Assembly: GCA_000934665.2 (NCBI GenBank)
Contig: JYFJ02004145.1
Span: 1-34,472, forward strand
DNA from: Catajapyx aquilonaris
Taxonomy: Eukaryota
Length of the DNA: 34,472 bases
Direction: 5' to 3'
A program made the translations under genes and the position numbers. The notes under the pieces were generated by a model. That model did no database searches, had not been told where the DNA came from, and was given only the letters and a program-made list of their open reading frames with translations. This document shows, in pieces, positions 620-34,472 of the stretch. How positions within the stretch are numbered: the stretch's first letter is position 1; every line of letters starts with the position of its first letter.

Positions 620-1150
620 CGCGCCCACTGTGGGGCGGTGGGAGCATCCACGCAGTCCACCAGCAGCAACTGCAGCGCAAAAAGGTGCACCACATGCCAA
701 AGAAGGGAATGCAGTCAGGGCAACAGGGCACCCAACGTCCGTTCAAAGGCTGTGGGGGGCCCCACCCCCACCAGGACTGCTGGACTGCGACCGTCACGTG
801 TCGGTACTGTTCAAAGGTAGGGCAAATAGAAAAGGTGTGCCTGATGAAAGCAGCAGAAGCAGGGCAGGGGACCAAAAGCAAACACCAGTCACCAACCAGT
901 CCACGCCACGTCAGCAACCGTCGACCCGGAGGACATTGTCACGCTATTCAACATAGCAGCGGACCGGCCAGCCCCAACCATGGTGGAAGCCACCATCGCA
1001 GGTCAGAGAGTGGACGTGGAGGTGGACTCCGGGGTAGGGTGCAGCCTCATCAGCTGGCAAACCTTCAATACGCTCTGGCCAGGGAAGGAAGATGAGTTGG
1101 ATCCCATCAGCATGCAGCTCCGGACGTGGTCCAACCAGGATACCCTCCCC
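620..1150 (+). mobile_element. Gypsy LTR-retrotransposon fragment: gag zinc knuckles plus aspartic protease
   Basis: GCGGPHPHQDC...CRYCSKVGQIEKVC knuckles, then a frameshift into VDVEVDSGVGCSLISWQTF (DSG protease motif). Truncated at both ends. Confidence 0.85.
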
Positions 1151-1359
1151 TTTAACTATGTGCTTTTTAGCTGCGGGTTGAAACCCTCTCCCCTTCTGCT
1201 CTGCACCTTGTGTGCAGCAGGCTGAAAAAAGCCCCTCCCAGTGACACCTTACGTAGATGACAGCCGGCAACAGGAGCGGCAAGGAGAAGAAAGGCGGCAG
1301 CAAGACGAAGCCTGGTTGCCGCAGGAGTCAGCCCCAGAGGACCAAGACGCTGCTAAATG

Positions 1360-1585
1360 AGGTGCCCATTGAGCTGTATTTTAATTTTGGCATGTATAGA
1401 TCAATTGAGTTTCCAATCCGCTACAGGACAGATATTTTAGTTCTGTTCCGACGTGCGCAGGAAGAGCTTTAGACAGTTTTTTTTTGATTCCTGGAAAGTT
1501 TGATTTTCTACACTTGGGCCCTTGATGTATTACACGATTCAATTGGAAACGAATGTTATTTCGATGTCAAAAATCTACACTAGTG
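1360..1585. mobile_element. Possible CMC (Chapaev/CACTA-type) element terminus
   Basis: AT-rich tract ending GATGTCAAAAATCTACACTAGTG, i.e. a CACTAGTG terminus on the reverse strand. No partner TIR seen. Confidence 0.25.
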
Positions 1586-1699
1586 GAAAACAAACGCCGG
1601 AAACATGATTATTAGAAAAGCGTATTTAGGCACAGTATTTCAATAATGTCCATATACCGATGGATAAAATATGTAAATTCGTGGGCTATCTGGATATCT

Positions 1700-1886
1700 C
1701 TTGATCCGCCGCGTCAAGTATTGATCGAAAGAGAATAACATTTGGCCAGACACACGGTGGTGGATTGGGCCTCGTTTATCCGAGAGGTTTTTTTATGATT
1801 GGGCATCTAGAAATTCACAAATGATAGGAGGCCCCCAAGAGATAGTAGAAATAAACGAGGCCAAGTTCGGCAGGAGAAAATACCGC
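1700..1886 (+). mobile_element. Merlin (IS1016/IS1595-like) transposase fragment
   Basis: HTVVDWASFIREV...IGGPQEIVEINEAKFGRRKY matches the Merlin IGGxGxxVEIDExKFGxRKY block. The first catalytic D appears as N. Confidence 0.85.
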
Positions 1887-2033
1887 AGTCTTTGTGACTG
1901 CGCCGAAGATATCTGCACCGAGGTTTCCGAGTTCCGCTGTGCGGACTGTAAGAAATGCTTCTGCTTCCATCACTGTTTGTTGAAAAGGTGCATGATGCAG
2001 CGAACTGTGGGACCTATTAAGTTGGGTAACTGA
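1887..2033 (+). mobile_element. Cys/His-rich C-terminal tail of an unrelated transposase
   Basis: CAEDICTEVSEFRCADCKKCFCFHHC followed by a stop. Resembles CxxCxxxxCFxH tails of arthropod DDE transposases and is joined directly to the Merlin piece. Confidence 0.4.
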
Positions 2034-2179
2034 CAGTTTTTGTATAATAATAAATTACCAACTTTGTCCACATAAACTTATGTTTAAAACAGCTCACAGT
2101 CAAACAAAGTAGAGTGCTTGCTGTTAGGCTGCACGGAGAGGGCATTTGGGTTCACCTTTTCATATATGCGATTGCAAGT

Positions 2180-3893: not shown

Positions 3894-4940
3894 AAGCGGA
3901 TTACCAGGAATTGGTCCAGAGTGAAGAGGGTCTCCGCCTACTGGAGGAGTCCGGGTGCCTAAGGCTAACAAACTTGGGCACTCGGGCCCTAATGATGCAA
4001 GACAGCATCGACTTTCAGGCATGTGCTAGGACCAGTACTGCCCTGAAGCAGTAAGTGGTTATGCACAAATAGTACAATATAAGTAAGTGCTGCGGGGAAT
4101 TTCAAATGGGGAGAAAATATATGGTGCAAGTCTTAAGCTCCGTTGGATTCAGCATGATTCTATACTGTCCTATCAGCTCCTATGGCAGAGCTATAATTTC
4201 ATTATGGGTCACCTTTCAGACTGGCACAGGGTTTGGAAACCCTAGGGTTGCTGGATATGATGAGAAGGAATTCTGTCACTCTCCAACCCCTTTTCTGCGG
4301 AAAAGGGGTGGCTATTACAGCAGACCGGCTGATGCGACTGTTTGAACCAGTGCGATCAGTACCAGGAAGTAATGCGTACCCCAGTGAAACGAACACTCTT
4401 GCACACTGGTACAAGTTTTTAGATACCGTGGAAGGTCAGTGTGCTAGTAGTAGTAGTAGTAGTAGTAAATAATAGTTAACATCAATTATTACGAGTACTT
4501 CAAAGTAAATGTAGTCGTTTTATTTTCTTCGAATTGTGCTGCTGGAGGAAAGAGATGTCTACATACAGTAGGGGAGGTGTGAAAGCTCTTATGACCTGTA
4601 TAAGTTTCTGTAACGATTCTCTAAATGTGGGGATGTGATTTAGTTTCAAACTGAATGTTTCTGCATTCCAGTGTCTCCCTCCAGTATTCAAGACGGAGAA
4701 GCTGTGACCCTAAGGGGAATTCTTGCCTTTGTGAGAGGAGCCGAGGAGGAGCCTCTCCTTGGCTACGACGATGAACCGAGAATTGTTTTCCAGCGCATGC
4801 TGGAGAATGACAGGCTCGGCATGCCCACGGTGTCGACATGCACCAACGTGCTGACTCTTCGCCACCACGACGTCTATGCAACATTTGAAAACTCATTCGT
4901 GAAGGCACAGAGAGAGTGCAAGGGGTTCTACGAAGTTTGA
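3894..4940 (+). pseudogene. G2E3-like HECT E3 ligase C-terminal fragment, three exons (3894-4050, 4220-4434, 4693-4940)
   Basis: Phase-compatible GT-AG introns join ...ALKQ/LAQGLETLGLLDMM...GSNAYPSE...W...E/DGEAVTLRGILAFVRGA...PTVSTCTNVLTL...GFYEV*. The catalytic Cys is in STC. The 5' part of the gene is missing. Confidence 0.8.
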
Positions 4941-4959
4941 GGAACTAGCAGTAAACCCG

Positions 4960-6662
4960 TGATTCGCGCGGTTCTAAACTTCTGCCAGTGAAGGTGACTG
5001 ACTTAGTGACAGTGGGTACATCACCAAAGGACCAAAGGGGTCGACATGGTAACGTAGCGCGAAGGAGTGGTCCTGATGTTGTAACTGCTATCAAGGAGCA
5101 TATCAAATCGTTTCCCGCCCGTCAGTCGCACTACTGTAGGCGCGACAATCCCGAGCGGCTGTACTTGCCTGAAAACCTATCAATAATGGAGATGTACAAG
5201 TTGTTTGCGGTTACACCTGTCGGCAAGAATGTGACTTACAAGATGGACTGGAATACATTCACATTCAACATTAAATTAGGACTCCCCCGATCAGATACTT
5301 GAACACAGTGCGACACATTCCACCATAAAATTGCATCTGCATCCCAACTTGAAGAGAAAATGGCATTGATCGGTCAACGAGACATGCACCATCGGAAGGC
5401 AGAGGCTTTCTACAACCTGAAAATAAAGTACAAAGCAAAATGTCGCGAGGACAGCGGGACGCTTGTAATCACATTTGACTTTATGCAAAACCTCCCACTG
5501 CCACACATCCCAAGTGGGCCTGTATTTTATAGTCATGAGCTGTGGTACAATGCCTTTGGCGTGCACAATCTATCGGATGACTCCGCCACAATGTATGTTT
5601 TCCATGAAGGCACTGCGAAAAAGGGACAGAACGATGTCACATCCTTGCTATTTGACTACATCAAGTCGCTGAATGTTCATGCGCAGGAGTTGGTCCTCAT
5701 CAGCGATGGATGTGGAGGGCAAAACAAGAACAATGTCACGGTTAGGTTCCTGTTCTTCATTGTCCATGTTTTCCGCATCGTTCCACGTGTCACGTACTTG
5801 TTCCCTATGAGAGGCCACAGCTACTTGCCCAACGATCAGGACTACGCATTGATTGAGAAGAAGAAGAGGACAACTCGAGCTGAAGTTCCTGAAGATTGGG
5901 ACAATGTTATTGTGGGAGCGATGAGCAAACCGTCACCGTTCCACCTCCACAAGGTTCGTCAGAGCGACATGCTTGCTGTGGGCGCTGCTGTAGCATCCTA
6001 CTAACTGAGGCAAAGCAAACCACCACTTCAGCTGAGAGAGTTGCGTATGCTGCGCATTTCCAGTGACGAGCCACAAGGAGTTTCAGTGAGAATGACATAC
6101 TCTGGCCCATGGCAGAAATGCATCATCCGAAACAGAAAGCCTCTTCCCAATGAGATCCACTTTGAGCCCCTTTACTCAGGACCTATCACGATTAACCCAC
6201 AGAAGCTTGAGAATCTCAACAAACTGAAGCAACTCTTGCAAAAGCCTGCTAATGCATCATTTTACGAGGCTTTCCAAGGTTGTGATGCACCTGGCGAGGA
6301 GGTGGATATCGATGAGGATAATAATAGCAGTGGCTGTGAAAACTGACATGTTATTCACAATAAAATAATGTGCTTGCTTATGCACTGACTCCGGATAAGA
6401 CTCTTTCATTTTCCCACAAAAATCACCCAAGTACAGGATTCATACAAAAACAGCCCATGTCACTTTTTAAAATAATTTATATATCAAAAAGTACAAACCC
6501 CATATGTGCAACTGTGATGTCATATCGCTCGTAACAACTGAGGCTATTCAATGAATTTAAGAATTTGTGTCTTTCTTCATGTGGTATTGTGCTAGATGAA
6601 TTTTTGTCTCTCCAGGAGAATTTTTCTCAAGTGACATGGGTTGTTTTTGTAATCAGCCCCTC
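4960..6662 (+). mobile_element. Sola1-type DNA transposon, 5'-truncated, right TIR retained
   Basis: HIKSFPARQSHY, FDFMQNLPLP, ISDGCGGQNKN and GHSYLPND motifs. Premature stops at 5300 and about 6002. Ends ...AATCAGCCCCTC then AATT. Subterminal inverted repeat at 6444-6463 / 6631-6650. Confidence 0.8.
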
Positions 6663-7499: not shown

Positions 7500-8168
7500 T
7501 ATCTTCAGGACAAGTTTCGGAATGTGTCGAGCCTGATTGTGGATGTGCCAAAGCAAGGACATGGTGCATAGAACGATGGCAACACAGCCCGACGATTTTT
7601 TTCGGACCCAAAATTGTCGGCTGAAGTCATTGGTATGCTTTCCAATAATATGCTCTTGTCTATTGATGAATCTGTTATTGTAATCAACTATTTTTTTCTG
7701 TGAAGGGATTGATGAAGCCCTCATCTCAAGGTTTGGCACAATCCTGAAGGCATTAAACAGCACCTACCCAGTGAATGCAGAGGCTTTTCAGGACTACTGT
7801 TTCACCACTGCGGAGATGTATGTTTCCCTGTACATCAGGTACTACATGCCAACCACTGTACATAAGATTCTAATACAATGTGCAGCAGTGGTGAGAGAAG
7901 CCTTGCTTGGGGGGGGGGTTGTCGGAAGAGGCTCAAGAGGCAGAAAAACAAGGACATCAGGAGGTACCGGGAACACCATACACGGAAACGTTCCCAGGTA
8001 CATGGAAACGAAGGCCTCTTCCGACGACTACTCCTCAGCTCGGATCCTAAGATTAGCACCATCACCATCAAGCGGGGACACCCCAAGGAGAAGAAGCTAA
8101 GAAAAGATGCGATGTCTTTAATTATGAAGGACTCAGACAGTGATTCCGATGAATCAGAAGAATGCTGA
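7500..8168 (+). mobile_element. Transib (RAG1-core-related) transposase C-terminal fragment with intron 7633-7705
   Basis: LIVDVPKQG..NDGNTARRFF, YYMPTTVHKILI, SEEAQEA, REHHTRK and LLLSSDP motifs. Phase-1 GT-AG intron. Contains a stop and frameshifts. Confidence 0.88.
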
Positions 8169-8269: not shown

Positions 8270-8870
8270 CGCCTCAAAATCTAAATCAACGACCGTAAAA
8301 GCAGGGAAACATTAGCTACTTTCACCTACACTTGTACCGCTTATTCTATATATTATTAAAGTTTATCATGTTATACTGTACTATTTATTCCACGAGATCT
8401 CAAATTTGACGGTGTGTTTGATACAGGCTCTTGGTCTGGGTTCAGTATAGCCTAAAAATCTAAATCAGTTTCCGCCAACATATTGTACGGTAAAATATTA
8501 TTTTCACGTATCCATACTTATAATGTAGATTATACAAATTATTAAATTCGAGGGTCTTTTTATGGTGCACCCTGTACGTCCTGGTTCAAACAAACCTATA
8601 AATCAAAATTAGGACGGCGAAAACATCGGGAAATGTTATTTTCACCTGCTTGTAATGTTTATTCTACACGTTCTGAAATTCCATTGTCAGTTTTGAGTAC
8701 ACCCTGCAGTTATAGGTTCAAAATAACCTCTAAATCGAAATCAGCGACCGTAAAAACAGGGAAATAATTTGTTTTCACCTACTTGTACCGTTTATTCTGC
8801 AGATTAAATTCTACCCTGGTTTCGTACACCCTGTAGGTCTTAGTTAGATAAGAGCCTCAAAATATGAAGC
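8270..8870. repeat. Degenerate tandem repeats of about 130-170 bp downstream of the Transib ORF
   Basis: AAATC...GACCGTAAAA.CAGGGAAA...TTTCACCTACTTGTACCG.TTATTCT recurs near 8277, 8600 and 8731, with a weaker copy near 8456. Confidence 0.6.
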
Positions 8871-9074
8871 AGTGACAGCAAAACGGTGCATTGGTCTGGA
8901 GAGTAAAGATGCCAAGCATTACGATATTTCAGAGAACATTTTGACGACAGGAAATCACCTGGCAAAAAAAGAATGCAAGACTGTACAGTTGGTGGTGAAA
9001 GTCAAGGTCGAAAACCTACCCGCAAAGGAGGGTGAGGGAACTCGTTACAGAGTAATGTTAATGCATAATGTCAA

Positions 9075-9292
9075 ACGCCGACAGGAACTGAGCGCCCCTC
9101 GGGGATGTGTACTGTGGGGCACAAGAGTGGTGATACCGGCAGCGTTCAAGGGGGAGCTGTTGGGGTGGCTCCACGTGGCCCACCCAGGGATGGTACGCAT
9201 GAAGGGTCTGGCACGCAGCTACCTCTGGTGGCCTGGCCTGGACGAGGACATTGAAAAGGCAGTGGGAGCCTGCGAGGCGTGCCAGGCATTCC
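9075..9292 (+). mobile_element. Gypsy integrase H2C2 zinc-binding fragment
   Basis: GCVLWGTRVVIP...LHVAHPGMVRMKGLARSYLWWPGLDEDIE...CEACQ. Confidence 0.9.
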
Positions 9293-9329
9293 ATCCGGAC
9301 CATATTCTTCATGCACAGTTAGAGTGTCG

Positions 9330-9510
9330 TGTTTCAAAAACGTCACTGAAAGAATTTAGGAGGGCGATTATTCAATCACTTGTTCAGAGATCTGCACTTC
9401 GACTGTCACTTGGACACAGCATTTCACCAAGAGGAGGCAAGCCCCTGTGTAAACATGTCCATAAAGTACATTCCATGGAGTCTTCCACATCACATAGGTC
9501 ATCAAGAAGC
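9330..9510 (+). mobile_element. Possible piggyBac transposase C-terminal scrap
   Basis: SLKEFRRAIIQSLV resembles the piggyBac LxxFRxxIxxxL helix. Short and weak. Confidence 0.25.
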
Positions 9511-9551
9511 GAAGGATCATTAGATTTCAATTACGTACATGTTACTGTTGT

Positions 9552-9930
9552 GTGTGTGGCAGGTGGGAGGGAACTGAGTTGCGCCTTTTTTTATTGCTTA
9601 ATGTTGGACCTGTGGCCCTGAATGGAATCTTACCCGATCCTCCCTGTGGGCATTTCATACTATTCAGTGTGGCTTGTCGCATACTTCTGCAGCCCACTAT
9701 GCCCGAAGCCATGTGTATGTATGCTATTATGGTAACTTTTGTTGAAAATACTGCCACCCTTTACGGAAAGCGAGTAATGGTATACAACATCCACAACTTA
9801 ATTCACCTAGCAGATGTCGTCATGAAGTATGGCTCACTTGATAACCTCAGTGCATTTCCCTTTGAAATATTTTTGTATCAAATCATAATAATGTTAAGAG
9901 CCACGAGCCATCATCCCCTTGAAGAATTGA
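9552..9930 (+). mobile_element. EnSpm/CACTA transposase fragment
   Basis: RWEGTELRLFLL..GPVAL, LYG...VYNIHNLIHLADVV..YGSLDNLSAFPFE. Confidence 0.88.
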
Positions 9931-10489
9931 ATAACCAGAACTACACCAAATCATTCAATATGACAGCTAAATATGAAGGCATGTTTGCAAGCTTGCAAAA
10001 ACTGGTGATTGTGAGCAAATTTTGGTTAAAAGAAAACCTGCACACCTCATATTTCCCATCTTGTGGTTTTCACACACTTTGAAATGCAAGCCGTTGAAAG
10101 GGCATTTAAAGCGATCATTGCGATTTAAATCGGTCATTGCAGACATTGCTTGCAATATTATGCAACATTATTTATGCGGTTCCAAATGGGTAATGCCACC
10201 GTAACTGCTTGTTCTTGGTTGTATTCATGGAGGGTGTCCTACTTTATAGGAATTTGTTCAATTGGAAATAAATTGCAGTACAGCTTGCAGTTCTCCTTCT
10301 CACCTTTCTTCATTACTAAAAGGGGGAAAAAATAATGTATCTGAAAACAATCAGTCAGCTGCCAGTAGGTTTGTATGAAACCATGAAAATAATTAATTTT
10401 ATTATTATGCTTTCATTGCAGCATCTGGAGAGCATCCATCTGCCTCTACCAACACTGGCACAATAATAAAGCGACCCGAGACTGTCACA

Positions 10490-10900
10490 TTGTTCTGTCA
10501 TCTGAGCAGCAAGAATGCGCACGTGACTTGTCTTACTGATGGCAAGGTAATGCCCGACAAATGTCTCGAGTATTACGATGCAGAAGTCAAAAGAAGTGCC
10601 ATTGAGTGTGAAACCATATGCGAATTAACCAGGACGCAGGATAACACCTCATGGAAGGAGGAGAGACGAAAGAGCATAACCGGTTCCATATGTTATGGAC
10701 TATTCACCTACGGGACCCGACAACCAGTCTGGAAAAAAAAAAAAATGAAGATAACCTTGCACCACCTGTTTCTCGGGAACCGCAGCACACGCCATGGGAA
10801 GATGTGGGAGCCAGTGGCTTGGGAAGCATATGCAATGGAAAAACAATGTGACGCAAAGATGTTTAGGTTGGTAATTTCTCCGCAGGCTCCTTGGCTTTTA
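10490..10900 (+). mobile_element. YqaJ/lambda-exonuclease-like domain fragment (TE-borne)
   Basis: TRTQDNTSWKEERRKSITGS...GNRSTRHGKMWEPVA...LVISPQAPWL. Truncated before the SPDG motif. Confidence 0.75.
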
Positions 10901-11004
10901 AGAGAGAATCAAGATACCAGATGGAAGCAGGGACTTCACTCATGTGAGGATCAATTGTAAGCGCAAGTGCACCACTGCTATGTAAGCGATGCGGCGCAAC
11001 TGTT

Positions 11005-11637: not shown

Positions 11638-12449
11638 TGATCCAAGGCCATGATCCAGGCCCGTACAGTGTCACCCAGCTGGATTGTACTACTTGTCAGT
11701 AGAAAGATTTTTGGCACTAAGCTTATTCTTATTTCTAAGCAGTTGTACCTATGGAGTTGTTATATTTTAGTGGCTAGCTAATACATTAGGTACTGCACTA
11801 ATGTTATGCCTGATTAAATCAACCTTTCTTGGTTCTAAAGCACAATGAACTGTTACCCTTCGGTTCCTAACCTATAGATGCAATTAATTTTGGGGGCGAG
11901 AAAACATATCTAACAGGGATTTCACTCTAATTGTATTCCTCCAGTTGAGTACTGTGTAATGAGAGCTTAACATTGTAATGTAAGGAAATGTAATGTTGGT
12001 TGTTATTCTATTGGCCACTTGTTTGTGTAACTTAGATACTTGTTACCATGTATTCCAGTTGTTGTTTACCTGNCGTGGGGAAACAGGGAGAGGGAGAGGA
12101 TTTCTCTACTGCAACACACACTTTCTGGCGCTTTCTGGCCTGGCCTTCAATCTGGCCCCGACATTGAAACAGACTTTCAAAAGCAAGGAGAGGTGGGAGT
12201 CATTAGTCCCCCTTCGAAACGAAGGAAATACAAATGACTAGGCGTGGCCATTGGCCAGCAGATTACGCCGGACCGGGTGGGAGAAGGAGGCGAGTTTTTA
12301 TCTGGTTTTAGTCCTGTTCCCCACCTTACATCCCCCTTCCCTGAGCCTGGTCCTCATTTTAACCCAATGACCCAATCTTCACAGGCTGGTCCTCAATGTG
12401 ATCCGATACCCCAATTCCCGCAGGCTGGCCCTGCTTTTATTCCCCTTTC

Positions 12450-13100
12450 CCCGCGTCTGGCGCGATGGATAAAAACTTACTCCGTTTTACATCCGGCTCA
12501 AAAGGGGTTTATGCCCACGGATGGCGTAGCAGAGCACAATTTGTCCTGGAGCAACGTCTGGGAGAGGCCAGGAGAAACCGGGCCGACCTGTGTATAGGTG
12601 GGCTCGATTTCTCAGCCGCATATACCTCCGTACCCCATGGTGCCCTCCGAGCTTCCCTGGAAGCTGCCGGAGTGGGGGAGATGTTTGTGGACGTCGTGGA
12701 GGACTTCTGTGGCGGGGGAACGACGCAGATCGTGACGGTGGACGGTCTCACCCTGCCCATCCCAGTCAAAAACGGAATCCGTCAGGGGGATCCGCTGTCA
12801 TGTCTTCTTTTTAATGTGGCGATCGACCAGGTGTTGTGGAGGGTCTGCCCAATGACCACTGCCAAGCACCAGGTATTGTACGCGGATGACGTCACCCTCC
12901 TTGCTGACGATCCGAAGGAGCTCCAGAATGGCTTGGAGGTGGTGGAGAGACAGGCAGCCAGGATTTCCATCTTGGTGAATCCCAAGACAACCACCAACCA
13001 AGTCACCATGCATTTTTCAAGAAGGACCCCGGTGGGAACCAGGCCCACTGCCTTTTTTCTCGGAGGGCGCACTTGGATGGAGAAAAAACCATGTTCCTAG
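12450..13100 (+). mobile_element. Utopia/NeSL (R2-group) non-LTR reverse transcriptase fragment
   Basis: LHPAQKGFMPTDGVAEHN, a frameshift, then LDFSAAYTSVPH, GIRQGDPLSCLLFN and YADD. Confidence 0.85.
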
Positions 13101-13149
13101 GCAGGCCGGTGGGGTTCCAGGGCCTGACGGACTACTGTAGTCCCAACAA

Positions 13150-15447: not shown

Positions 15448-15449
15448 GA

Positions 15450-19798: not shown

Positions 19799-19890
19799 AT
19801 TCTTGGGTGGTTCGGGCCCAAGTACATATACATTCAAACACAGTGGCAACGAAATCGGGCCACATTCAAACATAACTAATTTTGTCATAG

Positions 19891-20212: not shown

Positions 20213-20769
20213 ACGGAATGGAGAGGTAGGAAATTGATTTACTATTATAAACACATACGTAACTTACACCATTTTTTGTTCAAGGAACCGGGGGTATTGG
20301 TGCGAACATTGCAGGGACCATTTTTACGAACTAATTAACTATAGAAGGCACGTCACGTCGATGCAATGACGTCGGTAAAGAGATACAAAAATGTCGTCTA
20401 TCTCATCATCCTCCCTTCCATTAAGTCCTCTGCTGTACCTAACCACTCACCAGAGGATTCAGTATTGGTTTATGACACTGTTTGTTGTGTGTCCCTGGTC
20501 ATCGCTGGCTACCCTATTAGGCCTACAGGATTATGCCATGAGGTTATGAATGAATGAATTTTGTGGGTCACATTCATCCTTTGCACACTTTCTTCGCACT
20601 GAAGTAGGTTAGTTAGAGTTGAGGTTGCAGCTCACCTGGCCTTTGTATAGAGTGGCAAAAAATAGCAGCTGAAAAAGGTAGTTCTTATTTTCTGCTACTC
20701 TTGTATTTTAAACAATTTTTTGTGGGATTTTGTCTGCATATGAATTTGCATCCTGGCGCAACATGCATC

Positions 20770-22010: not shown

Positions 22011-22658
22011 TAGGGAACAGGAAATAGCTGTTTCGGGACCACCCATTGTGTTGCAAACACTTGCTCCGGGGGAACCCCAGGTGCACTTTCCGGCCACCAG
22101 TGCGTACTTGAAGTGGAGGAACACTGTAATGTACTCAGAGGGAAGAAAAAAAAGAAGCGGGAAGAAGAAGGGAGGCCGGGGCGGTGGACGGGGGCGGTGG
22201 ACGGGGGCGGGGGCTACAAGCGAGGGCCTGACCCGCCCGAATCCACGTTCGCTGCCATGGCCGTGGCCGTTATGCAGGGCGAACCCTCAACAGTGAAAAC
22301 ATCTGGCAGTTCCGATGATGGGGACGTCTTGCTGCTGCACCCTTCGGACGAGGACCTGGCCATTTGCTCCGGTGGGGATGCTGAGTGTACTACCTGACTC
22401 ATGTGCTGCGACAATTTGGTTTTTGCTTTTGTTTTTTTTTTTTCTTCCCCTCTTCATTTTTAGGACGAGGACGTTTCGCGTTTTTTTTTTAAAAATATAT
22501 TCTTATTGTCAATGTAATTGTTGGTTGTTTCTCGTTTGATTTTCGACTTGTACTACTGTATTCTCCCGTACTCCGCCATACTGTTGTACAATTTTGTACT
22601 GCTGTTCCTCCCCCCTTTCCTCTCTCCCCCTCTCCTCTCTTTGTGAAGGGCGGGCATA

Positions 22659-25250
22659 GGGGAGAGTAGGGTAATGGCGCTCACCTCAGTTCCCGCCAAA
22701 CGACAAAAGACTGAGCGTCATGAAAGGTGCTACCATCTCCCTCCTAGTGTCACATATAACCAAGAAAGAAATGGCACCCGAGGCTGTGCCTAGTACTGAG
22801 TTGTGAATGTAAATGTACTTTTTGGCACTTTTCTTCTAAGGGCTACCCTTTCTTCTCGCCGCTCTAAGTTGCTTATCGTTATCTTAACGACTGTGGGGTA
22901 AATACCAGTGAAAATCTCATTCAATTCTTGTAGAAATGGCGTGGTTTGTTAGGCCTACGCTTGTTGTGCATTTCCCTAGCAGGCCTACGTCATCATCGCA
23001 TGAAAATCGGGCAATGGCGCTCAGCGTGAGTGCCATTGCCCGACTGATGAGCGCCATTGCCCGACTGATTTGAGCGATTTCCTTAACTGATTTCAGCGAA
23101 TGACTTATTGATTTAATGCACTTTCCAGAACGTTTTAGCACACTTTGATCATGCCGCGTAAGAGGGAAGTCTCAGCGAAGGCTAAATGGAGCATCGATGC
23201 TATGAAAATGGCAATCGAAGCGGTGAAAGGTGGGAATGGTGTCCGCGAATCGTCCCGAAGATTTGGTGTCCCCTTCAGTAGCCTGCGTGATAGACTTAGA
23301 GCAGGGACATGCTTCGAACCCCGAATGGGAAGGAAGTCTGTGTTTACTGAAGAACAGGAAAGGGAGTTGCGGGACCACTTGATCACTCTCGCTAACATGT
23401 TTTATGGACTAACTCCATTGGATGTGCGTAAAGTAGCCTTCGACTTTGCTGACAAAAACAACATACCCCACAATTTCAACACATCCAGCAAAATTGCTGG
23501 AAAGGACTGGCTATATGGCTTTCAGACACGCAACCCAGACATTTCTCTCAGGAAGCCAGAGGCGACCAGCGTCAACAGAATCAAGGCTTTCAACAAGAAA
23601 GATGTGGGAGTATTTTCTACTAATCTTGAGACTGTTATGGAGAAATACCATTTCGCACCAAAAAACATCTACAATGTCGATGAGACGGGGGTTACAACGG
23701 TTCAAAAACCAAGTAAGGTATATGCAGCCAAAGGTCAAAAGCAAGTTGGTAGTGCAACTAGTTGGGAACGCGATAAGAACGTCACTCTGTGTTGTGCAAT
23801 GAATGCAGAGGGTGGATTTGTACCTCCGATGTTCATTTCCCCCCGTATAAGAATGAATCCTCAATTAGAGAAAGGTCGTCCCCCAGGTTCCATCTACACT
23901 TGCACCAAAAGTGGTTGGATGACGGAGGAAGTGTTCACGGCATGGCTTGCACATTTCATAAAGCATTCACACGCTTCAGTGGCTAATCCAGTGCTACTTA
24001 TCCTTGACAATCATACAAGCCATATCTCCTTGGATTCCTACAACCTGTGCCGAAAGAATGGAATCACCATGCTTTCCCTGCCACCACACACGTCGCACAA
24101 ACTGCAGCCGTTAGACGTCACTTTTTACTTCCCCCTCAAATCAGCATACAACAGAGAGTGTGATATGTTCATGAAAAGTCACACATACGAAAAAATCACA
24201 CCATACGAAATGGCATCCCTCGTTGGAAAGGCTTACGGTCGTGTAGCAACTGTAGAAAAGGCAATTAGTGGGTTTAAGAAAACAGGGATATATCCAATGG
24301 ACCCCTATGTATTTGACGAATCTGAGTTCATGATGGATGACCCCATTTCTGAGCCAAGACCGCCCATTTGGCCAACACCAGAGCCAGCCAAAGAGTCGCA
24401 AGGTCAGGAACTCCGACACAAAACTGACCAACAAAATGGAGCTGGATCAACATCCGGAGAGGAACCTGTTGCTGGACCGTCTGGTGAGAGGCCGGTGCGT
24501 TTCAGTGACATCAGCCCTGTTCCACAGCTACGAGAACAGCAAGGCAGCAGGAAGAAACAAAAGTCTGAAATCTTAACAACGACACCAATGAAGTCGATGC
24601 TAGAGGACAAAGCCAGGAAGAAGAAGGAAAAATTATCCGCAGTGGGAAAGAAGGGCAAGCAAAGGGCTACCAAGACAGGAGCAAAAAAAAAATAAAAATG
24701 CTAAGAGGAAACTGAAATTGGTGGATACTTCATCCGATGATGATATTGATCCCGCCAAACTATGCGACGACAGAAGTGATGACACATCCATGGAAATGGG
24801 GCCGGACTGTAACTATTGCCTAGTTTGCGAAGAATTTGGAAGAGACAATGAACTATGGTACAGGTGTACAATTTGTGGTCGGTGGGCTCATACAGCATGT
24901 AGTGGAGTGGAAAGTGAGAAGAACTATACATGTGACTTTCTTGTAGAGGGAAAGTAGACCTATTGTCAAATCTGAGCTTCACCCTGGCCATAGTGATGGT
25001 AACCGATGTAATCTCGTGTTCCATGGGTGAGCGCCATTACCCGCCGAGTGGCGGGCAATCCCGCTCAGGGAGGGGCTTTTAAAAATGGCTACAACTGTTT
25101 AAGTAATTGATTAAGCTTTTTTACTTTTCATGTGTTTTGGAGAAAATCGGCGAATCTATCGCATTATTATACAGACGTTTCTTTAAAAAAAATAAGGAAG
25201 ATATGAAATGGCCTTTTTGCTTAAGTGAGCGCCATTACCCTACTCTCCCC
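22659..25250 (+). mobile_element. Complete pogo-superfamily (Fot-like, DD35D) DNA transposon, 2592 bp
   Basis: Perfect 26-bp TIRs GGGGAGAGTAGGGTAATGGCGCTCAC (22659-22684, 25225-25250) with TA on both flanks. Internal GAGCGCCATTGCCCG-type repeats near 23008-23063 and 25028-25067. Confidence 0.95.
23151..24957 (+). CDS. pogo/Fot-like transposase (HTH + DDD + PHD-like finger) with one frameshift in an A10 run
   Basis: YNVDETG, LILDNHTSH and LQPLDV with 35 residues between D2 and D3. Removing one A at 24683-24692 joins the ORF to CLVCEE...WYRCTICGRWAHTAC. Confidence 0.9.
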
Positions 25251-25252
25251 TA

Positions 25253-25308
25253 AGCAGCTTTGGCCGATTTTGTCAATAATTAAAACGACAAAAAGTTTGA
25301 CCGCCCTG
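25253..25308. mobile_element. Tc1/mariner-like terminus scrap
   Basis: Ends AAAAGTTTGACCGCCCTG followed by TA. Confidence 0.35.
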
Positions 25309-25906: not shown

Positions 25907-26176
25907 TCAGGCTAAGCTAACTTTCTCTTCGTCTGTTGGAGAGCCAGTGTCACTTGATCCACCTGCACTCGCGTAAGCCTGGATGATCGTCACCACTTCC
26001 GGATGGTCGTGCCGCATCTTTGCCAAATCCAGCGGTGTCTTCCCGTCAGTGTCCTGGGCTCCTGTGCCTGCCCCATGCGAAATCATGGCCATGTGTGGCA
26101 GCATGGTGAAGCGGAGTAGGCTACGGCCAAACACAGAACTGACATCCATATCACTGTCAACTTTGAAGCAATATAT
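25907..26176 (-). pseudogene. Ankyrin-repeat terminal exon, degenerate
   Basis: Minus-strand acceptor near 26177. TPLHHAATHGH in one frame, then ISHGAGTGAQDTDGKTPLDLA...HPEVVTII and a stop. Confidence 0.75.
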
Positions 26177-26282
26177 CTGTGGCTCCAGGGAAAAAGGGGA
26201 TAAGTTCTATTCTTGCAATGTCCGGGTTATGGCACCAGTTTCCATAAAAATATGTGAAGTAGGTCTGGGGAAAAGGGGATAA

Positions 26283-26970
26283 GTCTACAACAGCCGCCGT
26301 CATAGCAACAAAAAGTACCTACCAGGTTTCTTGACAATAACTAAAATGTATGACTTGTACAAGGAGATGCACCCTAACACTCACGTATCCAGGACCATCT
26401 ATGAATCCTTGTTCCACAAACATAACTTATCATTCAAAGCACCTCAGCTTGACACCTGCCACTTGTGGGACACACTGGCTACAAAGATTTCCCTGGCATA
26501 CGAGGAAGAAAAGAAACTCTTATTAGAAGAAAGGGACAAGCACCATGGACGTGCTGACATGGCATTTCAGGCAAAGGATGCCGACAAGAAGGAAGCAAAG
26601 AGTGATGCCAGCGTCAGGGTGTATGCATTTGATCTCCAGCAGTGCCTCCCAACTCCCAGCCTATCATCCTCTGTGGCCTTCTACAAGCGACAATTGTGGA
26701 CCTTTAATCTGACGGTCTGCAATTGCGAAAACGGAATGGCTGTATGCTACATGTGGCATGAGGCAATTGGAGGCAGAGGGGCAAATCAAATTGCCTCATG
26801 TCTCTACCACTTCTTGTGCAATTTGGAGCCGCATGTGAAGCAGGTAATCTTCTATTCACACACATGTGGAGGCCAAAACAAGAACTCCCATGTGGCGGCA
26901 ATGTTTCTGGCAGCCATGGCTTGTAACCGGAATTTGGAAATAATCGATCATAAGTTCATGGTGTCTGGCC
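26283..26970 (+). mobile_element. Second, divergent Sola1-type transposase fragment
   Basis: LTITKMYDLY, PQLDTC, FDLQQCLPTP, FYKRQLWTFN, WHEAIGGRGANQIASC and CGGQNKN. Confidence 0.85.
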
Positions 26971-27224
26971 GATATTTTGACAAAATATCGAAAACTGGAG
27001 GTTATTTTTTGTTCTGGCAACCACGCGTTGACAGCGACCCTCCAGGCCTGCATCCTGCTTCCTGCAATCCTCCATCCCTTTTGCCGGAGGGGGCTACGGG
27101 ACTTGGGCAACGGCGGGATCTAATCAACTAATCCGGAACGGAAGGAGAGCACGGGGGACGGGGGTCGGGGGCTCGGGGGCACCTAAGACCTTACACGCCC
27201 ACACGGACTCATGCCCTCACGGCG

Positions 27225-27263
27225 CACAGTGGGGCCAATGACCGATTTAGCCGGACAAAAATT
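27225..27263 (+). mobile_element. Isolated Transib-type TIR with 23-RSS geometry
   Basis: CACAGTG (27225-27231), a 23-nt spacer, then ACAAAAATT (27255-27263). Confidence 0.6.
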
Positions 27264-27287
27264 GAAAAAAAAAAAAACAAATCCACG

Positions 27288-28172
27288 ATGAATCCGTACT
27301 ACCAGAGTGATAAAAAGAGAGCAGGTCTCAAACTGAAGCAAGAGGTGCCAACGAGGTGGAACTCTACCTTTTTTATGCTGGAGCGCTTTCTGTTGCTGGC
27401 ACCATCGATTGGGAGCGCCATTCTGAATAACCGGGCTGCCCCAGAAATGATTTCAGCCAGGGATCTTGAACTGTTACGAGATATTTGCAAGTTGCTGCAA
27501 CCACTCGAAAAAGTTACCAGAGAGGTGTCAGGAGGAGCCTATACTACAATTAGCAAAGTCATAGTGCTGTATCACTGTATGAAAGATGCCCTGTCGCGGG
27601 AGTCAACATCCACGGACATTGGAAAAGAGTTTAAGGTCAAACTGACGGACAATCTGGGGAAGCGGTTTGGGAAATGCGAGGAAAATTCTTTCCTGGCAGT
27701 TGCCACTATGATGGATCCACGTTTCAAAAAACTACATTTCTCAAAAAATCCTGTGGCCTGTAGCTCAGCTGTGTTCAAAATTAACGATGAAATCAAGTCC
27801 ATGTCCCAGTCTTCTGAAATTCACCAGGGAGGTCAGTCCACTTTTTGTTGTTGCTGTTGTTGTTGTTGTTGTTGTTTTCACGGTGTGCATATTTTTATGT
27901 CACGTATGTAGCATATTTGGGTTTTGATATTTATTCAGACCAATTTTACTTTCTTCAGCTTCTGCAGACATGAATGTAGAAGATGGGAAAGAAACCAGCA
28001 TCTGGGACTTCCACGGAAAGGCAGTCAAGAGGAGCCGTAGGGAAGCAAAGTACGAGGCAAGCACCAGCAGTAGCTCGACCCTGTCACCGGCATTGAAGAG
28101 ATATTTGGGGATGCCACTTTGTAACATCAGCGAAAATCCTCTGCAGAAGTGGCAAGAAATGGGACCAGCCCT
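27288..28172 (+). mobile_element. hAT (ZBED/hobo-Ac-like) transposase fragment with intron 27832-27958
   Basis: LKQEVPTRWNSTFFMLERF and ATMMDPRFK. Phase-1 GT-AG intron containing (TGT)n, then SIWDFH...LKRYL...NPLQKW. Confidence 0.88.
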
Positions 28173-28568
28173 GGGTACCTGCTGGGTACTGACATAACTG
28201 GTGGTGCAAGACCAACACAAGTGGAGGCAGATGGAATGATGGCTGCAACCACCAAGTGAAACCAGTGAAAATCCTATGGGGACCTAGAAGAAGTGTACCC
28301 CTAAAGATGGGCCACACAAAATGGTTCAGAGCTCTTCATCCCCTAACAGGACAGTGGGATTATCTGAGACAAAATTAAAACACCCAATTGTGTTAATGTG
28401 AGCTGCCCAGCAGCCTTCATGGGTCTGTCATGAAGCCCTTTGCTACGTCCAGCTCACCGGGAGAAGCCTCTGCGATTGGTCGAGACATTTCGCGCCAAGT
28501 TGCCCGCCCCTCCCTGCGACCCCACCTCACCCTGCCTGTTCCACTCCCTGCTGGTTCCTCAGTCAAAA

Positions 28569-28620: not shown

Positions 28621-30653
28621 CGGCGGCAACAGCATCATATGAGGTGTTTGTAGCATACTTTAAGAAACCCATTATTTGGGACGTGCGGACTCGGCAGTAA
28701 CGGACTACGGATTCCAAGGAGAGAGCAAGGGAAGAGGTCACCCAGAACAGCAGGGTGGCTGGTGATTTTTCGCGGCAGAATGTTCCTTGCCGTTCCATTC
28801 CTGTGTTCTCTTTATTATTCCCTACCACCCCTCTTGTGGCCAAGCTGGAGACAAATTGATACAGACATGACCAACCAGCCCATACGAATTTCCCACATGT
28901 GACTCGTTCTTTGAGCAAGTTGTTCCATCACTCAGGCAGGAACAAGGACGTCTAGTCATCACAGATGATGGTGGCAACCAGGCCCATGGGTCTTCTTCCC
29001 AACTGCTACCCTCACGTTGTCCCCGCCAGTACCCCGCAAGGGATCTCTTGATGGTTGGGGGATTGATGCCCTTCCCTTCCCTCCTTCCTACAGGCCTCCT
29101 CCTCAAGCATCCATCAGGTCCTTCCGCAGGACGGTTGGCTTTGTACTTCAGCCACATGTGATTCTATAGGCAAGGTTGGTTATGTAACCATCATCATCCC
29201 TCATGGCTTTTCCCAAAGGCCTGGGGTTGCCAATGGATAACTGTGGTCGTCACTACCCTCATATAACCTTTTTTTACCAATTCTCGAGCCTGGTCAGGTA
29301 CTCGCAAAAAATGGGGGGAGAAATACAACAGAGTGCCAACTAGTCAGGCTATGCTGGGTTGTTCACTTCTGCGGTGTCCCTGGAGACGTCCAACCCCAAA
29401 GGATGGGTGAGGCAGGCGTGCCATCTCCCTGCTGAGTTGTTGGCACCACCAGACGGAACAAAGGAGAGTAGCAAAACCTCCAGGGTCTTGTTTGGAATGC
29501 CTTCTACTTGCTGAATCATTGCCAACAGGTAAAGCATGCGATATAAAACCCAGATGTGATGCTGCGTAGATGTGCCTTTTCCAATCTGCAAAAAAAGAAG
29601 GTGCGTATTAATTTTCAATTTATATCACACATTCAAGACATTAGAAAAATGGCAATCACAACACCTAGCATCCGAATGTCATAAAATATTTTATCAACAC
29701 CCCATTTCTCCTTTTAAAAAATACGTCCAAGCCATGTTACTTTTGTGGCAAAATCAATGAAAAAAATCTGTTTCTGGCTAACACTGGACACTTGTTAGAA
29801 TTTCTGACTAAGTGGCTAACACATCCATGCAATGGCTGGTGTGTCTCAAAATAAGTACCTACTACGCTACACCCATTTCTTGAAGAGGATTCCCATTTAC
29901 GTTGATGAATCTAATGAACCGGCAATTCAAGTGAGAGGGATGTAGTGAAGTATCACCTAAGGGGCAGCTGGGATGTACCCAATTTAATTTTAGGTAATGA
30001 AAACTGCGGGTTAAAAAAAGCTCGGCTCATATGTGCAAACAAAAAAACAGATCCTTAAAATCGGTTGTGGCATTCGTCATACATCTACAAACTGAGCCAT
30101 TCCAGGACAAATCACGCAAAGGACTTCACCCCCCCTATCCCAATGAAATTTGGTATGATAATTCTCCATGAGGAATAGATCATGAACCAAGTTTTTCGAA
30201 CAATTCTGGGTCATTAGGTCACATGAAGTGAAGTGGGAAAAATCCCGTAAAAGGCCCCACACACTTGGACGAACAACCCTATGTCTCGTTGACTACACTG
30301 CACAACAATATTTCTGATGTATGAATGTGCTGTCAGGATTGAGAGATTGTAACGATTGAATGTTCAAATTTTTGAAGTCTGAATAAAGGTGTCACATGTA
30401 GAATTCATTGTTAAAAGATATTAAGGTCAACTAACTACCTCCTTCATCCTTGAAATTTATATCCTGTGTTCTGTACTTCATCCAGCATTTTTTACATATT
30501 TTCCCAGGGTGGTCCCTCAGTGAGTTTCAGAGTAATAAAATAAAACAGATAAAACAGGCAGGCTGTGAACATGTGGCATGTTCCCAACCTCCTTCACGAC
30601 AGATGGACCATAATGCCAACCCTGCCAGATTTGTGACAAATTTCGTGTCGTTA

Positions 30654-31316
30654 AGGTGCGTTCACATATACGCGAATAAACACTTGCGAGCAATTTTCAG
30701 GTTTTGCTTTTTCGCGTCTTTTACGTCATGAATCGAGCGAATTTTTGGAAAATTTTCCAGCCATTCATGTGTCCACTATGCGATGAAACTTACTAGTTAG
30801 TTATGGAGCATGCGCTGTGCAGCAGGGCAGGTAGGAGGGAGGACGGGGACGTGTGGGTAGGGGGAGGTCTTGGGCTGAGAAAGATGGCGGAGGCAGCCGC
30901 CATGGCAGTGAAAATGCTGCTGAACCGACTTCGGAAGGGCATCCAGGTCACAGTGCACCAAGTGGGGCAATAGCTGGACATGGTGCGGAGGCTGGCCGGG
31001 TCTGGAGTTAGCGACAAAAAAATAGGTAACTTCCGAGCTCGGGCACCAGCATCCCTAACGTGGCAGGGGAAGGCCGATAAGTCCGCGTGGCTTGAACCAG
31101 CTACAAAATTTGCTCGCGTCAAAAAATCCCTTCTATCTGGCTCTGCCAGAGGACCGCGATTTTTACGTGATTTACGTGAGTGACCAAAAGTGACCAAAAT
31201 TTGCCCATGTCTAGGAGAAAATCGCCGATACGAGAATTACTTTGGCCAGACGTGAATTCGCTGAAAGCTGAAATTCACTCGCTTTTGATCAAAATCACGT
31301 ACATGTGAACGCACCT
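30654..31316. mobile_element. PIF/Harbinger-type MITE nested in the foldback element
   Basis: TIRs AGGTGCGTTCACAT / ATGTGAACGCACCT with a TTA duplication (30651-30653, 31317-31319). Confidence 0.8.
30800..31100 (+). mobile_element. GC-rich insert in the MITE, possibly an R2-group LINE post-RT fragment
   Basis: GGLGLRKMAEAAAMAVKMLLNRL...LTWQGKA, with an abrupt composition change. Confidence 0.3.
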
Positions 31317-31607
31317 TTATACAACCAAAATACAGAGTTGACTGACATGTTTTGTTTTATTATGTGGAAACTCACTGAGGGACCACTGAAAAAATCAGTA
31401 AAAAATGGTCGTTGAAGTACAGAACACAGTATATATAATTTTTAAGGCCAAAGGAGGTAGTTAGTTGACCTTAATAAATTTTTCAGCGATGAGCTCTAAA
31501 TAGAACACCTTTAGTCCGATCAAAAAAATGTGAACATTCAATCATCGCAATCTCTCAATCCTGGACAGCACATTCGGACATCAGAAATATTGTTGTGCAG
31601 TGTAGTT

Positions 31608-31883
31608 AATAATAATAATAATAATGGATACCCCGTGCTAGGCCTCCTTGGGCCTCTTAGGGGATCATCTTTTATTTACCCGACTTTAATCATTGCCTTT
31701 GCTGTGATGGATTTTGATAGCGGGAGGAAACGGGAGAACCCCGAGAAAACCCACGCAAACACGGAGAGAACCCATCGAAACTCTATCCACATAAGAGTCC
31801 TCCGTCCGACCCGGGGATCGAACTCGGGACCTTAGAGGTGGAAGGCTGCGGCGCTAACCACTCCGCCACCGTGTCGCCCTTAA
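31608..31883 (-). mobile_element. tRNA-derived SINE with V-domain-like core and (TTA)n tail
   Basis: On the minus strand: A box TGGCGGAGTGG, B box GAGTTCGATCCC, core GCGTGGGTTTTCTCGGGGTTCTCCCGTTTCCTCCC. 13-bp TSD GTGCAGTGTAGTT (31595-31607, 31884-31896). Confidence 0.92.
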
Positions 31884-32428
31884 GTGCAGTGTAGTTCACG
31901 AGACATATGGTCGTTTGTCCATGGGTGTGGGGCCTTGTACTAGTTTTTATGGTATTTTCCTCATTTAATTTTGACATAATGACGCTAAACTGTTTCAAAA
32001 AATTTGATTTGAGCTCTATTACTTATGGAGAATTATATTGTACCAAATTTCATTGCGATCAAAAAATAGGGGGTGTAGTCCTTTCGTGAATTGTCCTGGA
32101 ATCGCCTTCCTATCAAATCAATATCCCCCCCCTTCCCCCCAATTTTTCGAGCCTTGCCAGGAGAAGGTCTACTATCTTGCCTTTTGAAGTTCCTTTCATT
32201 CCAGTTTGAAGGCAATGAGAAATTTCACGATGTTGCAAACGTACTTGACAAGTGTCACAGACACAATAAAATATATATGCATATCAGAGGAAATCTGACA
32301 ATGCCGTTTAGACTACTCATGGAGCCTTAAAAATTTGAGATGGGTTTAGTCCAACTGTGACAAATAATGGTGTTGCCGTAATACAGTCAATTTCACCTAA
32401 AAGAAACATTAGTACAGTGTGACAATTA

Positions 32429-32666
32429 CCTCCAGATTAGCCAGGTGAGGCTGATCACCATTGTCATCCCAAACTGAGCTGATGTTTCACTCCATAGCTA
32501 TGGGCCACCATTCCATCCACCGCTAACCAATTTCCCCCTTGAAGCCTCCTTTGAGGGAGTTGTCATGTTCCCAAGACTCATCCCTTGTTGAATTGTTGCC
32601 AAGTGTTTCAAGAAGTTCCTCACGGTTGCCAGTCATTTGATGGCCACGGTCAGATGACTTTTCTTT
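32429..32666 (-). other. Possible minus-strand exon remnant
   Basis: Acceptor TTCATTTTATTTTCAG and donor GAG/GTAATT on the minus strand. In-frame stops and no recognised domain. Confidence 0.3.
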
Positions 32667-34139
32667 CTGAAAATAAAATGAACATCAGTCACACTGTCTA
32701 TTAAACACCAGCAGCTGATCACACAAGATGACCCAATGCAATGGTCAATGCTATTTCGTGAAGGCTCCCCTCACTGTGATAATTTGAATGAGCTTGTTTC
32801 GTACCATATATGGTGGGAATGTAGGTTGTTCGATAGAGGAAGAGGGAGAGTGAGACAGGAGTATGTGGAATTTAGCCGAGAAAACATGTGGAGGGCTCTT
32901 CTGAGCCCCTCAGAAACACAAATGCGGGCCCTATTCTATTATTTTGGTTACATCGCAGACTGGATATACAACTGTTATACTAAGGTGAATCATACTGGTA
33001 TACTCTGAAACATCATTTCCACAACTGAGACAGTTCTATATTTTCTGTAATTTGTAATATTCCTTGCTACCTAATAGTCTGATCTCTGCTGCAAAATAGT
33101 GAAAAGGGAAAACAAAATTGGGCCTACTCCAGGAAAGACTTTTAAAAACATTAATTTTCGTGTTGCTCTTGCATGTTGGAATTAACCTCTTTCAGACTCC
33201 AATGAAATTTAATACCTGGATTTGAACTTGTTGGTTTCATTATTTTAGAGATTTCTGGCATACTGACTGCTGATAATGCTGCGCCAGAAAATATGTACTG
33301 GTACTTTACAATTTTAATATAGCCAATGTAAAGGTTGGACTTCACTAAATTTTGCTAAAAATTTCTATAAAATTTCCAAATTACATCATTAGTTCAGGTG
33401 TTGCATTTACCCCATCTGCAGTAAATAAAACTCTAACTGACCACCTCCCTATGATATTGCATTCCCCTATGGGGTAATTCCGACACTTGTTAGTGATGAT
33501 TTTCGATTCCATATTGCGCAATATTGTACTTTAGATACAGTACGAAAAAAGTTACGAAATGTTTGATGCTGCAAATAGGCCTACCAAGTCTCACCCTAGA
33601 TATTTTAACATTATAAATCATGCGCTTGATTCTCCTCTTTTACAAAACATTAATATTCTGTATTTTAGAGATACACAATAACATTCAAATACCACCATCG
33701 ACATCGCAGAAGAGGTGGGCGGCAGTGGAGGACCGCCAGCTCTGATCGGAACTAATGTACTCCGGAGTCCGGACCATGCACGTTTATCTTTGAGGGGTTT
33801 GGAAATGTCCGAATTGAATTTCTCGACCCTGATAACGTAAGAAATGACACTAGAACGGCCATCACAGCTCAACAGATAAGCCAAAAACACCCAATTTTTT
33901 AAGGCCCTGTTAAAATTCTTTGCGCGACTGTACAAAAATCAATCGAAACTTTCGTTGGCACCTACAACCCTGAAAACACTACATAAGGTGCCTGGAACGC
34001 GGGAAAAAATTAGCGCTTTTGGCTCGAAATACATAATACTTTCAATACGCCACCGTACTAAGAAACCGTGCAATACTGGTTGTTATACAGAAAATTCCTG
34101 GACGACTTGGAACTGCAGAGATTCATATTTGATCACATA

Positions 34140-34472
34140 CGAGGTGCAGTCATTAAGTTCGAAGCCCGAATTAAATCTCGGCTCCCATTTAACATATCAC
34201 GGCCAAATATTTATGGCGCATTGAGAGAGACTTTAGGGTGAAGAGGAAAAAAAAGAGGGCGCTGGCTCATATTCGATAATAGTTCTCGTCGTTTTCCCGA
34301 GAGGGCGCGCGGGAGTTCGGCGATGAGAATAAATAACACAAAATGGCGCCTGAGCGGAGGTTTGAGGAGCAATGCAACTCAATCAAATTTTGTGTGTTGC
34401 TGGGCCATACTCCCCAGGAAACACTGGGCATGTTGAGGAAGGCGTACGGCAAATGTGCCGCTCTCTCATGGC
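34140..34472 (+). mobile_element. mariner element 5' end (runs off the window)
   Basis: TA then CGAGGTGCAGTCATTAAG TIR. ATG at 34343 gives MAPERRFEEQCNSIKFCVLLGHTPQETLGMLRKAYG (mariner HTH). Confidence 0.85.

Follow-up and report, generated by a model that had tools for sequence, protein, structure and literature searches.

The contig JYFJ02004145.1 of Catajapyx aquilonaris (GenBank assembly GCA_000934665.2) carries, over positions 487-28194, an array of diverse, mostly truncated and nearly all single-copy gene fragments of transposable elements (TEs), all of them in sense orientation on the plus strand, with the two well-supported host-like relics in the region facing the opposite way. The stretch analysed, hereinafter the window, spans 34,472 bases with about 45% G+C and one N, and its content reads as that of a transposon-rich animal genome. 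Going by the recognisable TE gene fragments, we regard 487-28194 as an old, dense transposon graveyard with a single polarity. We tentatively propose that the minus strand is, or for a long time was, transcribed as a single long unit feeding the pathway of PIWI-interacting RNAs (piRNAs), i.e., a uni-strand piRNA source locus. What we infer from the arrangement is transcription of the minus strand, production of piRNAs and selection, orientation by itself revealing neither the transcribed strand nor piRNAs.

Since coding sequence on the plus strand is easier to spot when raw sequence is read, we scanned both strands identically with Pfam, taking every stop-to-stop open reading frame (ORF) of at least 45 amino acids (aa), namely 197 on the plus and 205 on the minus strand. 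The standard threshold was E<=0.01, with the curated cut-off also applied. Of the ORFs of at least 75 aa, 46 of the 65 on the plus strand and 58 of the 63 on the minus strand also went through a relaxed threshold of E<=0.5, earlier matches and overlapping duplicates being excluded. Searches of PDB, protein databases and the Atlas were directed at plus-strand ORFs, the two strands thus being treated equally at the Pfam level only. On the plus strand, 13 of the 104 ORFs of at least 60 aa contain a Pfam family, and nine of these are TE-type: seven score above the curated cut-off (DUF7869, Integrase_H2C2, two YqaJ, RVT_1, Dimer_Tnp_hAT and the DDE_1 domain of a pogo element) and two are weak (Tc5_C and a hAT-like RNase-H). 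The four other matches among the 13 are to HECT and C2H2, to PHD (weak) and to Pet100 (at chance level). Of the 100 minus-strand ORFs of this size, one has a match, to the non-TE BTB domain. ORFs of 45-59 aa yield no TE family on either strand (0 of 92 plus, 0 of 105 minus), a weak BACK/SPOP-BACK match appearing on the minus strand, and the relaxed threshold adds a weak aspartic protease on the plus strand and a weak Ank on the minus strand, with no TE family on the latter. At equal effort, TE-type ORFs therefore number nine among 197 on the plus strand versus none among 205 on the minus strand; the first-pass annotation of this DNA had held that many additional minus-strand TE fragments in a homology search would count against its reading, and this both-strand Pfam search brought none to light. 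A tblastn search of the window with 291 fetched proteins gave nothing further on either strand, and no transposase-like sequence was seen in the remaining minus-strand ORFs when read by eye.

Taken together, there are 11 secure and four to five weak independent TE gene fragments on the plus strand and none on the minus strand (Table 1). The secure set covers at least eight unrelated protein families: DUF7869 (twice), Transib, a long terminal repeat (LTR) retrotransposon integrase, YqaJ (twice), a non-LTR reverse transcriptase, hAT, mariner, MULE and pogo. The two-sided chance of such uniformity is 2 x 0.5^11 = 1e-3 for the secure fragments and 2 x 0.5^15 = 6e-5 with the weak ones. Long ORFs, too, are more frequent on the plus than on the minus strand: 12 versus four reach 150 aa, and 35 versus 24 reach 100 aa. 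The TE strand polarisation of the window is real. The first-pass annotation had listed 19 TE coding fragments over 620..34472, all on the plus strand, and a chance of about 4e-6. The orientation holds for every TE gene fragment recognised, the count of 19 was not fully reproduced, and its probability, which needs all 19, gives way to the values above; the array is likewise upheld for 487-28194 but not beyond 28.2 kb, no coding fragment having been verified in these searches between 28.2 and 34.5 kb. As for the families named, Transib, both YqaJ, pogo, MULE and a mariner were recovered, whereas Merlin, Sola1, both EnSpm and a second mariner were confirmed by no tool (the pieces called Sola1 are possibly the DUF7869-type ones), and three of four Gypsy assignments fell away to leave one secure LTR-type fragment, the integrase. 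Its description of the contents as mostly short, non-redundant pieces of DNA-transposon genes is borne out: most are internal pieces, with no DNA repeats in common, and occur as single copies at >=95% identity.

Most of the TE fragments are short internal parts of proteins, such as the Transib, reverse transcriptase and integrase zinc-domain pieces, the hAT dimerisation tail, and the helix-turn-helix (HTH) and linker of mariner. By our own sum of the parts, TE-protein remnants make up about 12 of the 34.5 kb, i.e., about a third. They lie side by side, with no pattern of split halves (A1-B-A2) of the kind left by nesting and no DNA repeats between them; as the paired pieces overlap in profile range, the YqaJ, DUF7869 and hAT pairs represent separate insertions rather than halves of one. 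The exception to truncation is a near-complete pogo element, whose 518-aa ORF contains DDE_1 (E 1.3e-22) and HTH domains in Pfam, and to which even the best relatives in the database show just about 50% identity. Its homologues run on into a PHD-like ORF in a different frame, indicating one frameshift; a fully intact ORF was considered and rejected, the C-terminal finger sitting in another frame.

Copy number and local continuity were assessed from DNA runs of one sample, assembled into short contigs, which may be the assembly's own source data; mapping at >=95% identity over 30 bins of 12101-32100 informs on local junctions and copy number, and not on the contiguity of the whole mosaic. For most TE fragments, pogo among them, word depth stays at a baseline of about 20-50, indicating that they are single-copy. 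Most of 12101-28775 is at this baseline, and within the polarised part depth is raised just at 15436-16102 and 16770-18103. The contigs cover 30 of 30 bins at even baseline depth and bridge both ends of the single-copy pogo element as well as the DUF7869/hAT border (26146-27310), which provides local assembly support. About 63% of the placed contigs (1315 of 2095 in run X1) match at only 95-99% and differ at many single bases; the sample is hence either highly heterozygous or unlike the assembled individual. At 14958-15329, contigs of runs X1-X3 (none in X5) omit 372 nucleotides (nt) and have 10 other letters in their place; this variant is an indel allele or a paralogue.

The minus strand offers a distinct set of sequences. 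Host-like coding pieces occur on it in the order ankyrin (26206-25910), BTB (18312-17713) and BACK (16423-16253), and mariner, MULE and pogo are positioned between them in antisense orientation. The BTB and BACK pieces belong to an SPOP-like gene copy, whose BTB homologues carry MATH and BTB (a search for longer relatives gave just two) and whose word depth of 6-10 times baseline points to a family of 6-10 copies. Its coding sequence is interrupted by 1316 nt at a word depth of 220-307, i.e., a multi-copy sequence. Contigs lacking this segment join 16418 to 17735 and 16421 to 17738, other copies in the reads being without it, and by our own arithmetic on the ORF coordinates both joins leave BTB and BACK in frame. 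The segment was rejected as an intron, as its ends are not GT..AG; it is a young multi-copy insertion, tentatively a TE, with its ORF again on the plus strand. Given the broken coding sequence and the 6-10-copy family, the SPOP-like copy has the look of a relic and not of an exon-bearing host gene. The SPOP-like BTB/BACK and the ankyrin, both well-supported non-TE relics, lie in the orientation that a minus-strand piRNA source predicts.

The proposed locus would work as follows. TE pieces antisense to a minus-strand precursor would give rise to antisense piRNAs against TE mRNAs and would be retained; sense-oriented pieces would offer no such benefit, or would terminate the precursor, and would be lost; and host-gene relics would persist only in the harmless sense orientation. 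The complete TE polarity together with the opposite orientation of the host relics suggests a long minus-strand transcription unit under orientation-dependent selection. Such an arrangement is known to arise in two settings, uni-strand piRNA clusters (PMC10643416; 10.1101/2022.08.22.504762) and ordinary genes (PMC3088655; PMC1391917). Complete polarity across superfamilies of DNA transposons is hard to obtain by chance or by ordinary intronic selection. If it is a piRNA source, the locus is an archive of old invaders.

Several observations weigh against this proposal. The poly(A) hexamers A[AT]TAAA number 36 on each strand, compared with a minus-strand Markov expectation of 27.0 +/- 4.7, and with a count above expectation nothing points to selection having kept a minus-strand transcript uninterrupted; the minus-strand G+T of 50.3%, from base counts, presents no clear transcription-type skew. 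Nearly all fragments are at baseline depth at >=95% identity and close-matching targets are absent, unlike in flamenco. One abundant short interspersed element (SINE) lies on the minus strand, and the HECT fragment, a non-TE piece, on the plus strand. Beyond Pfam, the minus strand received less search effort, consisting of tblastn with the fetched proteins and reading of its ORFs. Finally, for 11-15 independent events a chance of 1e-3 to 6e-5 is not extreme when very many windows are scanned.

The closest competitor, which we nevertheless consider unlikely, is that the region comprises long introns, untranslated regions or the non-coding transcript of an ordinary minus-strand unit with no piRNA role, perhaps one including the ankyrin and SPOP-like sequences, from which sense TE genes would be purged on account of their terminators and splice sites disrupting the host transcript. 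It is established that purifying selection gives intronic long interspersed elements and LTR elements an antisense bias (PMC3088655, PMC1391917), and the ordered ankyrin, BTB and BACK pieces with antisense mariner, MULE and pogo between them fit such a unit. Yet the bias reported there is partial and weakest for DNA transposons, which constitute most of the fragments here; in the account of transcribed mammalian regions in PMC1391917 they are the least orientation-biased class. As a result, ordinary selection in genes is a poor explanation for DNA transposons that are biased without exception. Furthermore, poly(A) hexamers are not depleted on the minus strand, although their depletion is the proposed selective agent, TE gene remnants occupy about a third of the window, and the interrupted SPOP-like copy with its 6-10-copy family is relic-like. 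We rank a piRNA source above a genic unit because the genic bias is partial and weakest for DNA transposons, and because depletion of poly(A) signals is absent.

Chance in a neutral TE graveyard, with random orientations and a window noticed for its uniformity, appears to us somewhat less likely again. A two-sided value of about 1e-3 for the 11 secure fragments is of the order that a scan of many TE-rich windows would include, and the lack of transcription footprints in poly(A) signals and G+T, as well as the minus-strand SINE, is compatible with it. Set against this are the tally of 15-16 to none when weak fragments are included (6e-5 or less, or 4e-6 with the full first-pass list), the host-like relics facing the other way, and the long-ORF asymmetry of 12 versus four at >=150 aa, which supports the polarity independently.

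Ranked last is joining in one orientation, by Helitron or Pack-type capture or template switching, or an assembly chimera of repeats; this is improbable, for although the fragments are adjacent short internal pieces of unrelated genes with no A1-B-A2 split-half nesting, and maize Helitrons do hold gene-fragment arrays in one orientation, neither Rep/helicase nor any other capture machinery turned up in Pfam scans of both strands, the array, being single-copy, is not a mobile composite, and the contigs cover 30/30 bins evenly and bridge several junctions, albeit from runs that may be the assembly's own data. Capture can also be imagined within a piRNA source: copies of TE transcripts would be inserted into the locus by an active process, in place of random insertion followed by selection, making it a directional archive to which TE-gene pieces of many superfamilies are added in a fixed orientation. 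Such a process would account for pieces that are short, non-redundant, unnested and uniformly oriented; we consider it very improbable.

If the locus is a piRNA source, it belongs to an already known kind of system. In Drosophila, arrays of TEs in the same orientation served for the de novo detection of uni-strand clusters, which small RNA data confirmed (PMC10643416); dense TE fragments predominantly in one orientation are likewise what we find in 487-28194. With flamenco and the flam-like clusters it thus shares a dense array of TE fragments and strong one-strand polarity. The first-pass annotation had called the locus flamenco-like, and in content this fails. DNA transposons dominate here, LTR elements are represented by one secure fragment (the integrase zinc domain) and one weak protease, and the reverse transcriptase is non-LTR, whereas in the flam-like clusters the bias is carried only by Gypsy/endogenous retrovirus elements (PMC10643416). 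No env family was found in Pfam scans of both strands of the window, in departure from flamenco. The verified stretch is about 28 kb, bounded by the window, compared to the 227-1085 kb stated there for flam-like clusters (PMC10643416). The fragments are nearly all single-copy, without near-identical genomic copies at >=95% identity, and any piRNAs would therefore closely match few present-day elements.

The core piRNA clusters of mosquitoes are unidirectional, driven by read-through from an upstream gene, and trap antisense viral fragments (10.1101/2022.08.22.504762). The likeness lies in a unidirectional set of short foreign gene fragments, with a host-like ankyrin upstream on the putative transcribed strand; the difference is that TE genes take the place of viral fragments, and that piRNAs and read-through are putative here. 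With genic antisense TE bias (PMC3088655, PMC1391917) the locus shares TE genes that run opposite to the region's only host-like coding sequences; it differs in that the genic bias is partial, least for DNA transposons, and accompanied by poly(A) and G+T footprints that are not seen here, the poly(A) depletion being a criterion from mammals (PMC1391917).

Helitron and Pack-MULE capture arrays also place short pieces of unrelated genes next to each other in one orientation. They differ from the present array, which has no capture machinery or terminal signatures within the window (the ends of the array, which such a test concerns, lie beyond it), is single-copy, and is made of pieces of TE genes rather than host genes.

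Should small RNAs bear the proposal out, an animal that has been little studied would have a uni-strand piRNA source whose polarity extends across many superfamilies of DNA transposons. This would show that no class of TEs is beyond the reach of selection for antisense orientation, as opposed to the Gypsy-only bias in Drosophila flam-like clusters, and would support TE strand polarity as a way to detect piRNA source loci outside insects from sequence alone. Should small RNAs prove absent, the locus would be a useful counter-example to such predictions.

Table 1. Features of the window with their strand and principal evidence; TE gene fragments are listed first, followed by other features.
Feature	Position	Strand	Evidence
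LTR-retrotransposon-like gag zinc knuckle and aspartic protease, weak	487..1222	+	Asp_protease_2 E 0.041 at 848-1222
Transposase-like ORF	1725..2030	+	Weak Tc5_C only, E 0.0018, below cut-off
DUF7869-type DDE transposase fragment, copy 1	4955..6343	+	Pfam DUF7869 E 2.8e-7 at 5303-6001
Transib transposase fragment	7684..8165	+	PDB 6PQN E 1.4e-12 at 7684-8097, chain residues 339-406 of 497
LTR-retrotransposon integrase, zinc-binding part only	8848..9618	+	Integrase_H2C2 E 1.5e-11
EnSpm/CACTA-like, lead only	9498..10079	+	Atlas first match 0.96
YqaJ-like exonuclease fragment, copy 1	10397..10957	+	Pfam YqaJ E 1.2e-4, profile 2-91 of 150
Non-LTR (R2/NeSL-like) reverse transcriptase fragment	12402..13097	+	RVT_1 E 6.9e-17, profile 54-189 of 205
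hAT C-terminal dimerisation fragment	13360..13635	+	Dimer_Tnp_hAT E 1.5e-7
YqaJ-like exonuclease fragment, copy 2	14329..14957	+	Pfam YqaJ E 1.1e-11 at 14691-14957, profile 50-119
Mariner transposase fragment, HTH and linker	19549..19876	+	Homologues E 7e-32, 64% identity
MULE transposase N-terminal part with C2H2 finger	20744..22127	+	zf-C2H2 E 2e-8 to 2e-7
Pogo element, near-complete	22654..25255	+	36-nt terminal inverted repeats, 92% complementary
DUF7869-type DDE transposase fragment, copy 2	26283..27128	+	BLASTP against copy 1: 34% identity, E 3e-25
hAT transposase fragment, weak	27132..28194	+	hAT-like_RNase-H E 0.0034; Hermes transposase E 0.024
HECT C-terminal fragment, non-TE family	4644..4937	+	Pfam HECT E 1.1e-6, profile 232-303 of 306
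SPOP-like (MATH-)BTB-BACK gene copy, interrupted	16253..18312	-	BTB E 5.6e-24; BACK/BACK_BPM_SPOP E 0.003-0.004 at 16253-16423
1316-nt insertion in SPOP-like coding sequence, tentative TE	16419..17734		179-aa ORF on +
Ankyrin-repeat fragment, host-like	25910..26206	-	PDB ankyrin/DARPin chains down to E 6e-21; Pfam Ank E 0.13
Long inverted-repeat (foldback-like) element	30158..32036	.	Inverted pairs I1-I5, I7, I8
tRNA-derived SINE, about 3000 copies	31606..31880	-	Depth 68,000-120,000 versus baseline 20-50

The individual TE assignments vary in their support. The leftmost fragment displays a CCHC knuckle and a DSG motif on reading of its translation. The transposase-like ORF that follows it, which received no match from pogo proteins in tblastn, has what we take to be an IS1595/Merlin-like motif, and is possibly the piece earlier called Merlin. 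The ORFs flanking 5303-6001 read as part of the same DUF7869-type protein, and the second copy, for which a PDB search gave no match, has an Atlas score of 0.92 to DUF7869 clusters. No rve core follows Integrase_H2C2 in Pfam, and a PDB search of the integrase ORF was also empty. For the EnSpm-like lead, DUF4218 is present on just 11% of the members of the Atlas cluster, and recognition falls slightly short at 2272 against a threshold of 2300. The top PDB matches of the reverse transcriptase are R2 proteins (8GH6, E 2.8e-14), with LINE-1 ORF2 next. The mariner homologues carry PF01359/PF17906 and are named SETMAR-like; tblastn places them at 19549-19819, and a PDB search of the ORF gave no match. 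MULE is recognised through 341 homologues at E<=1e-3, with PF10551 in 12 of 12 long ones and C2H2 as well in two of the 12 (tblastn 20792-22127). The hAT piece at 27132-27908 is weak in both Pfam and PDB, with typical hAT motifs by our own reading. The HECT fragment, which has no PDB match, is situated directly upstream of the first DUF7869-type transposase ORF and may be cargo of a TE or a relic of the host.

Among the other features of the window, a unit of about 290 nt occurs at 11005-11580 in two direct copies (78-86% alike) and, partially, in inverted form, with no coding match. Throughout the window, the observed/expected ratio is 0.66 for CpG, with a TpG/CpA excess of 1.21 and GpC at 1.0; the CpG deficit, as measured in this one window, may reflect past germline methylation. 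ARAGORN and Rfam found no transfer RNA (tRNA) genes or Rfam families in the window, the SINE included. The foldback-like element near the right end has a depth of 160-600 over 30110-31443. Read on the minus strand, the SINE has what we take to be an A/B-box-like head and an (ATT)n tail, and numerous distinct loose contig ends coincide with its border at 31879/31880; it is inserted in the right arm of the inverted-repeat element, opposite in orientation to the TE gene fragments.

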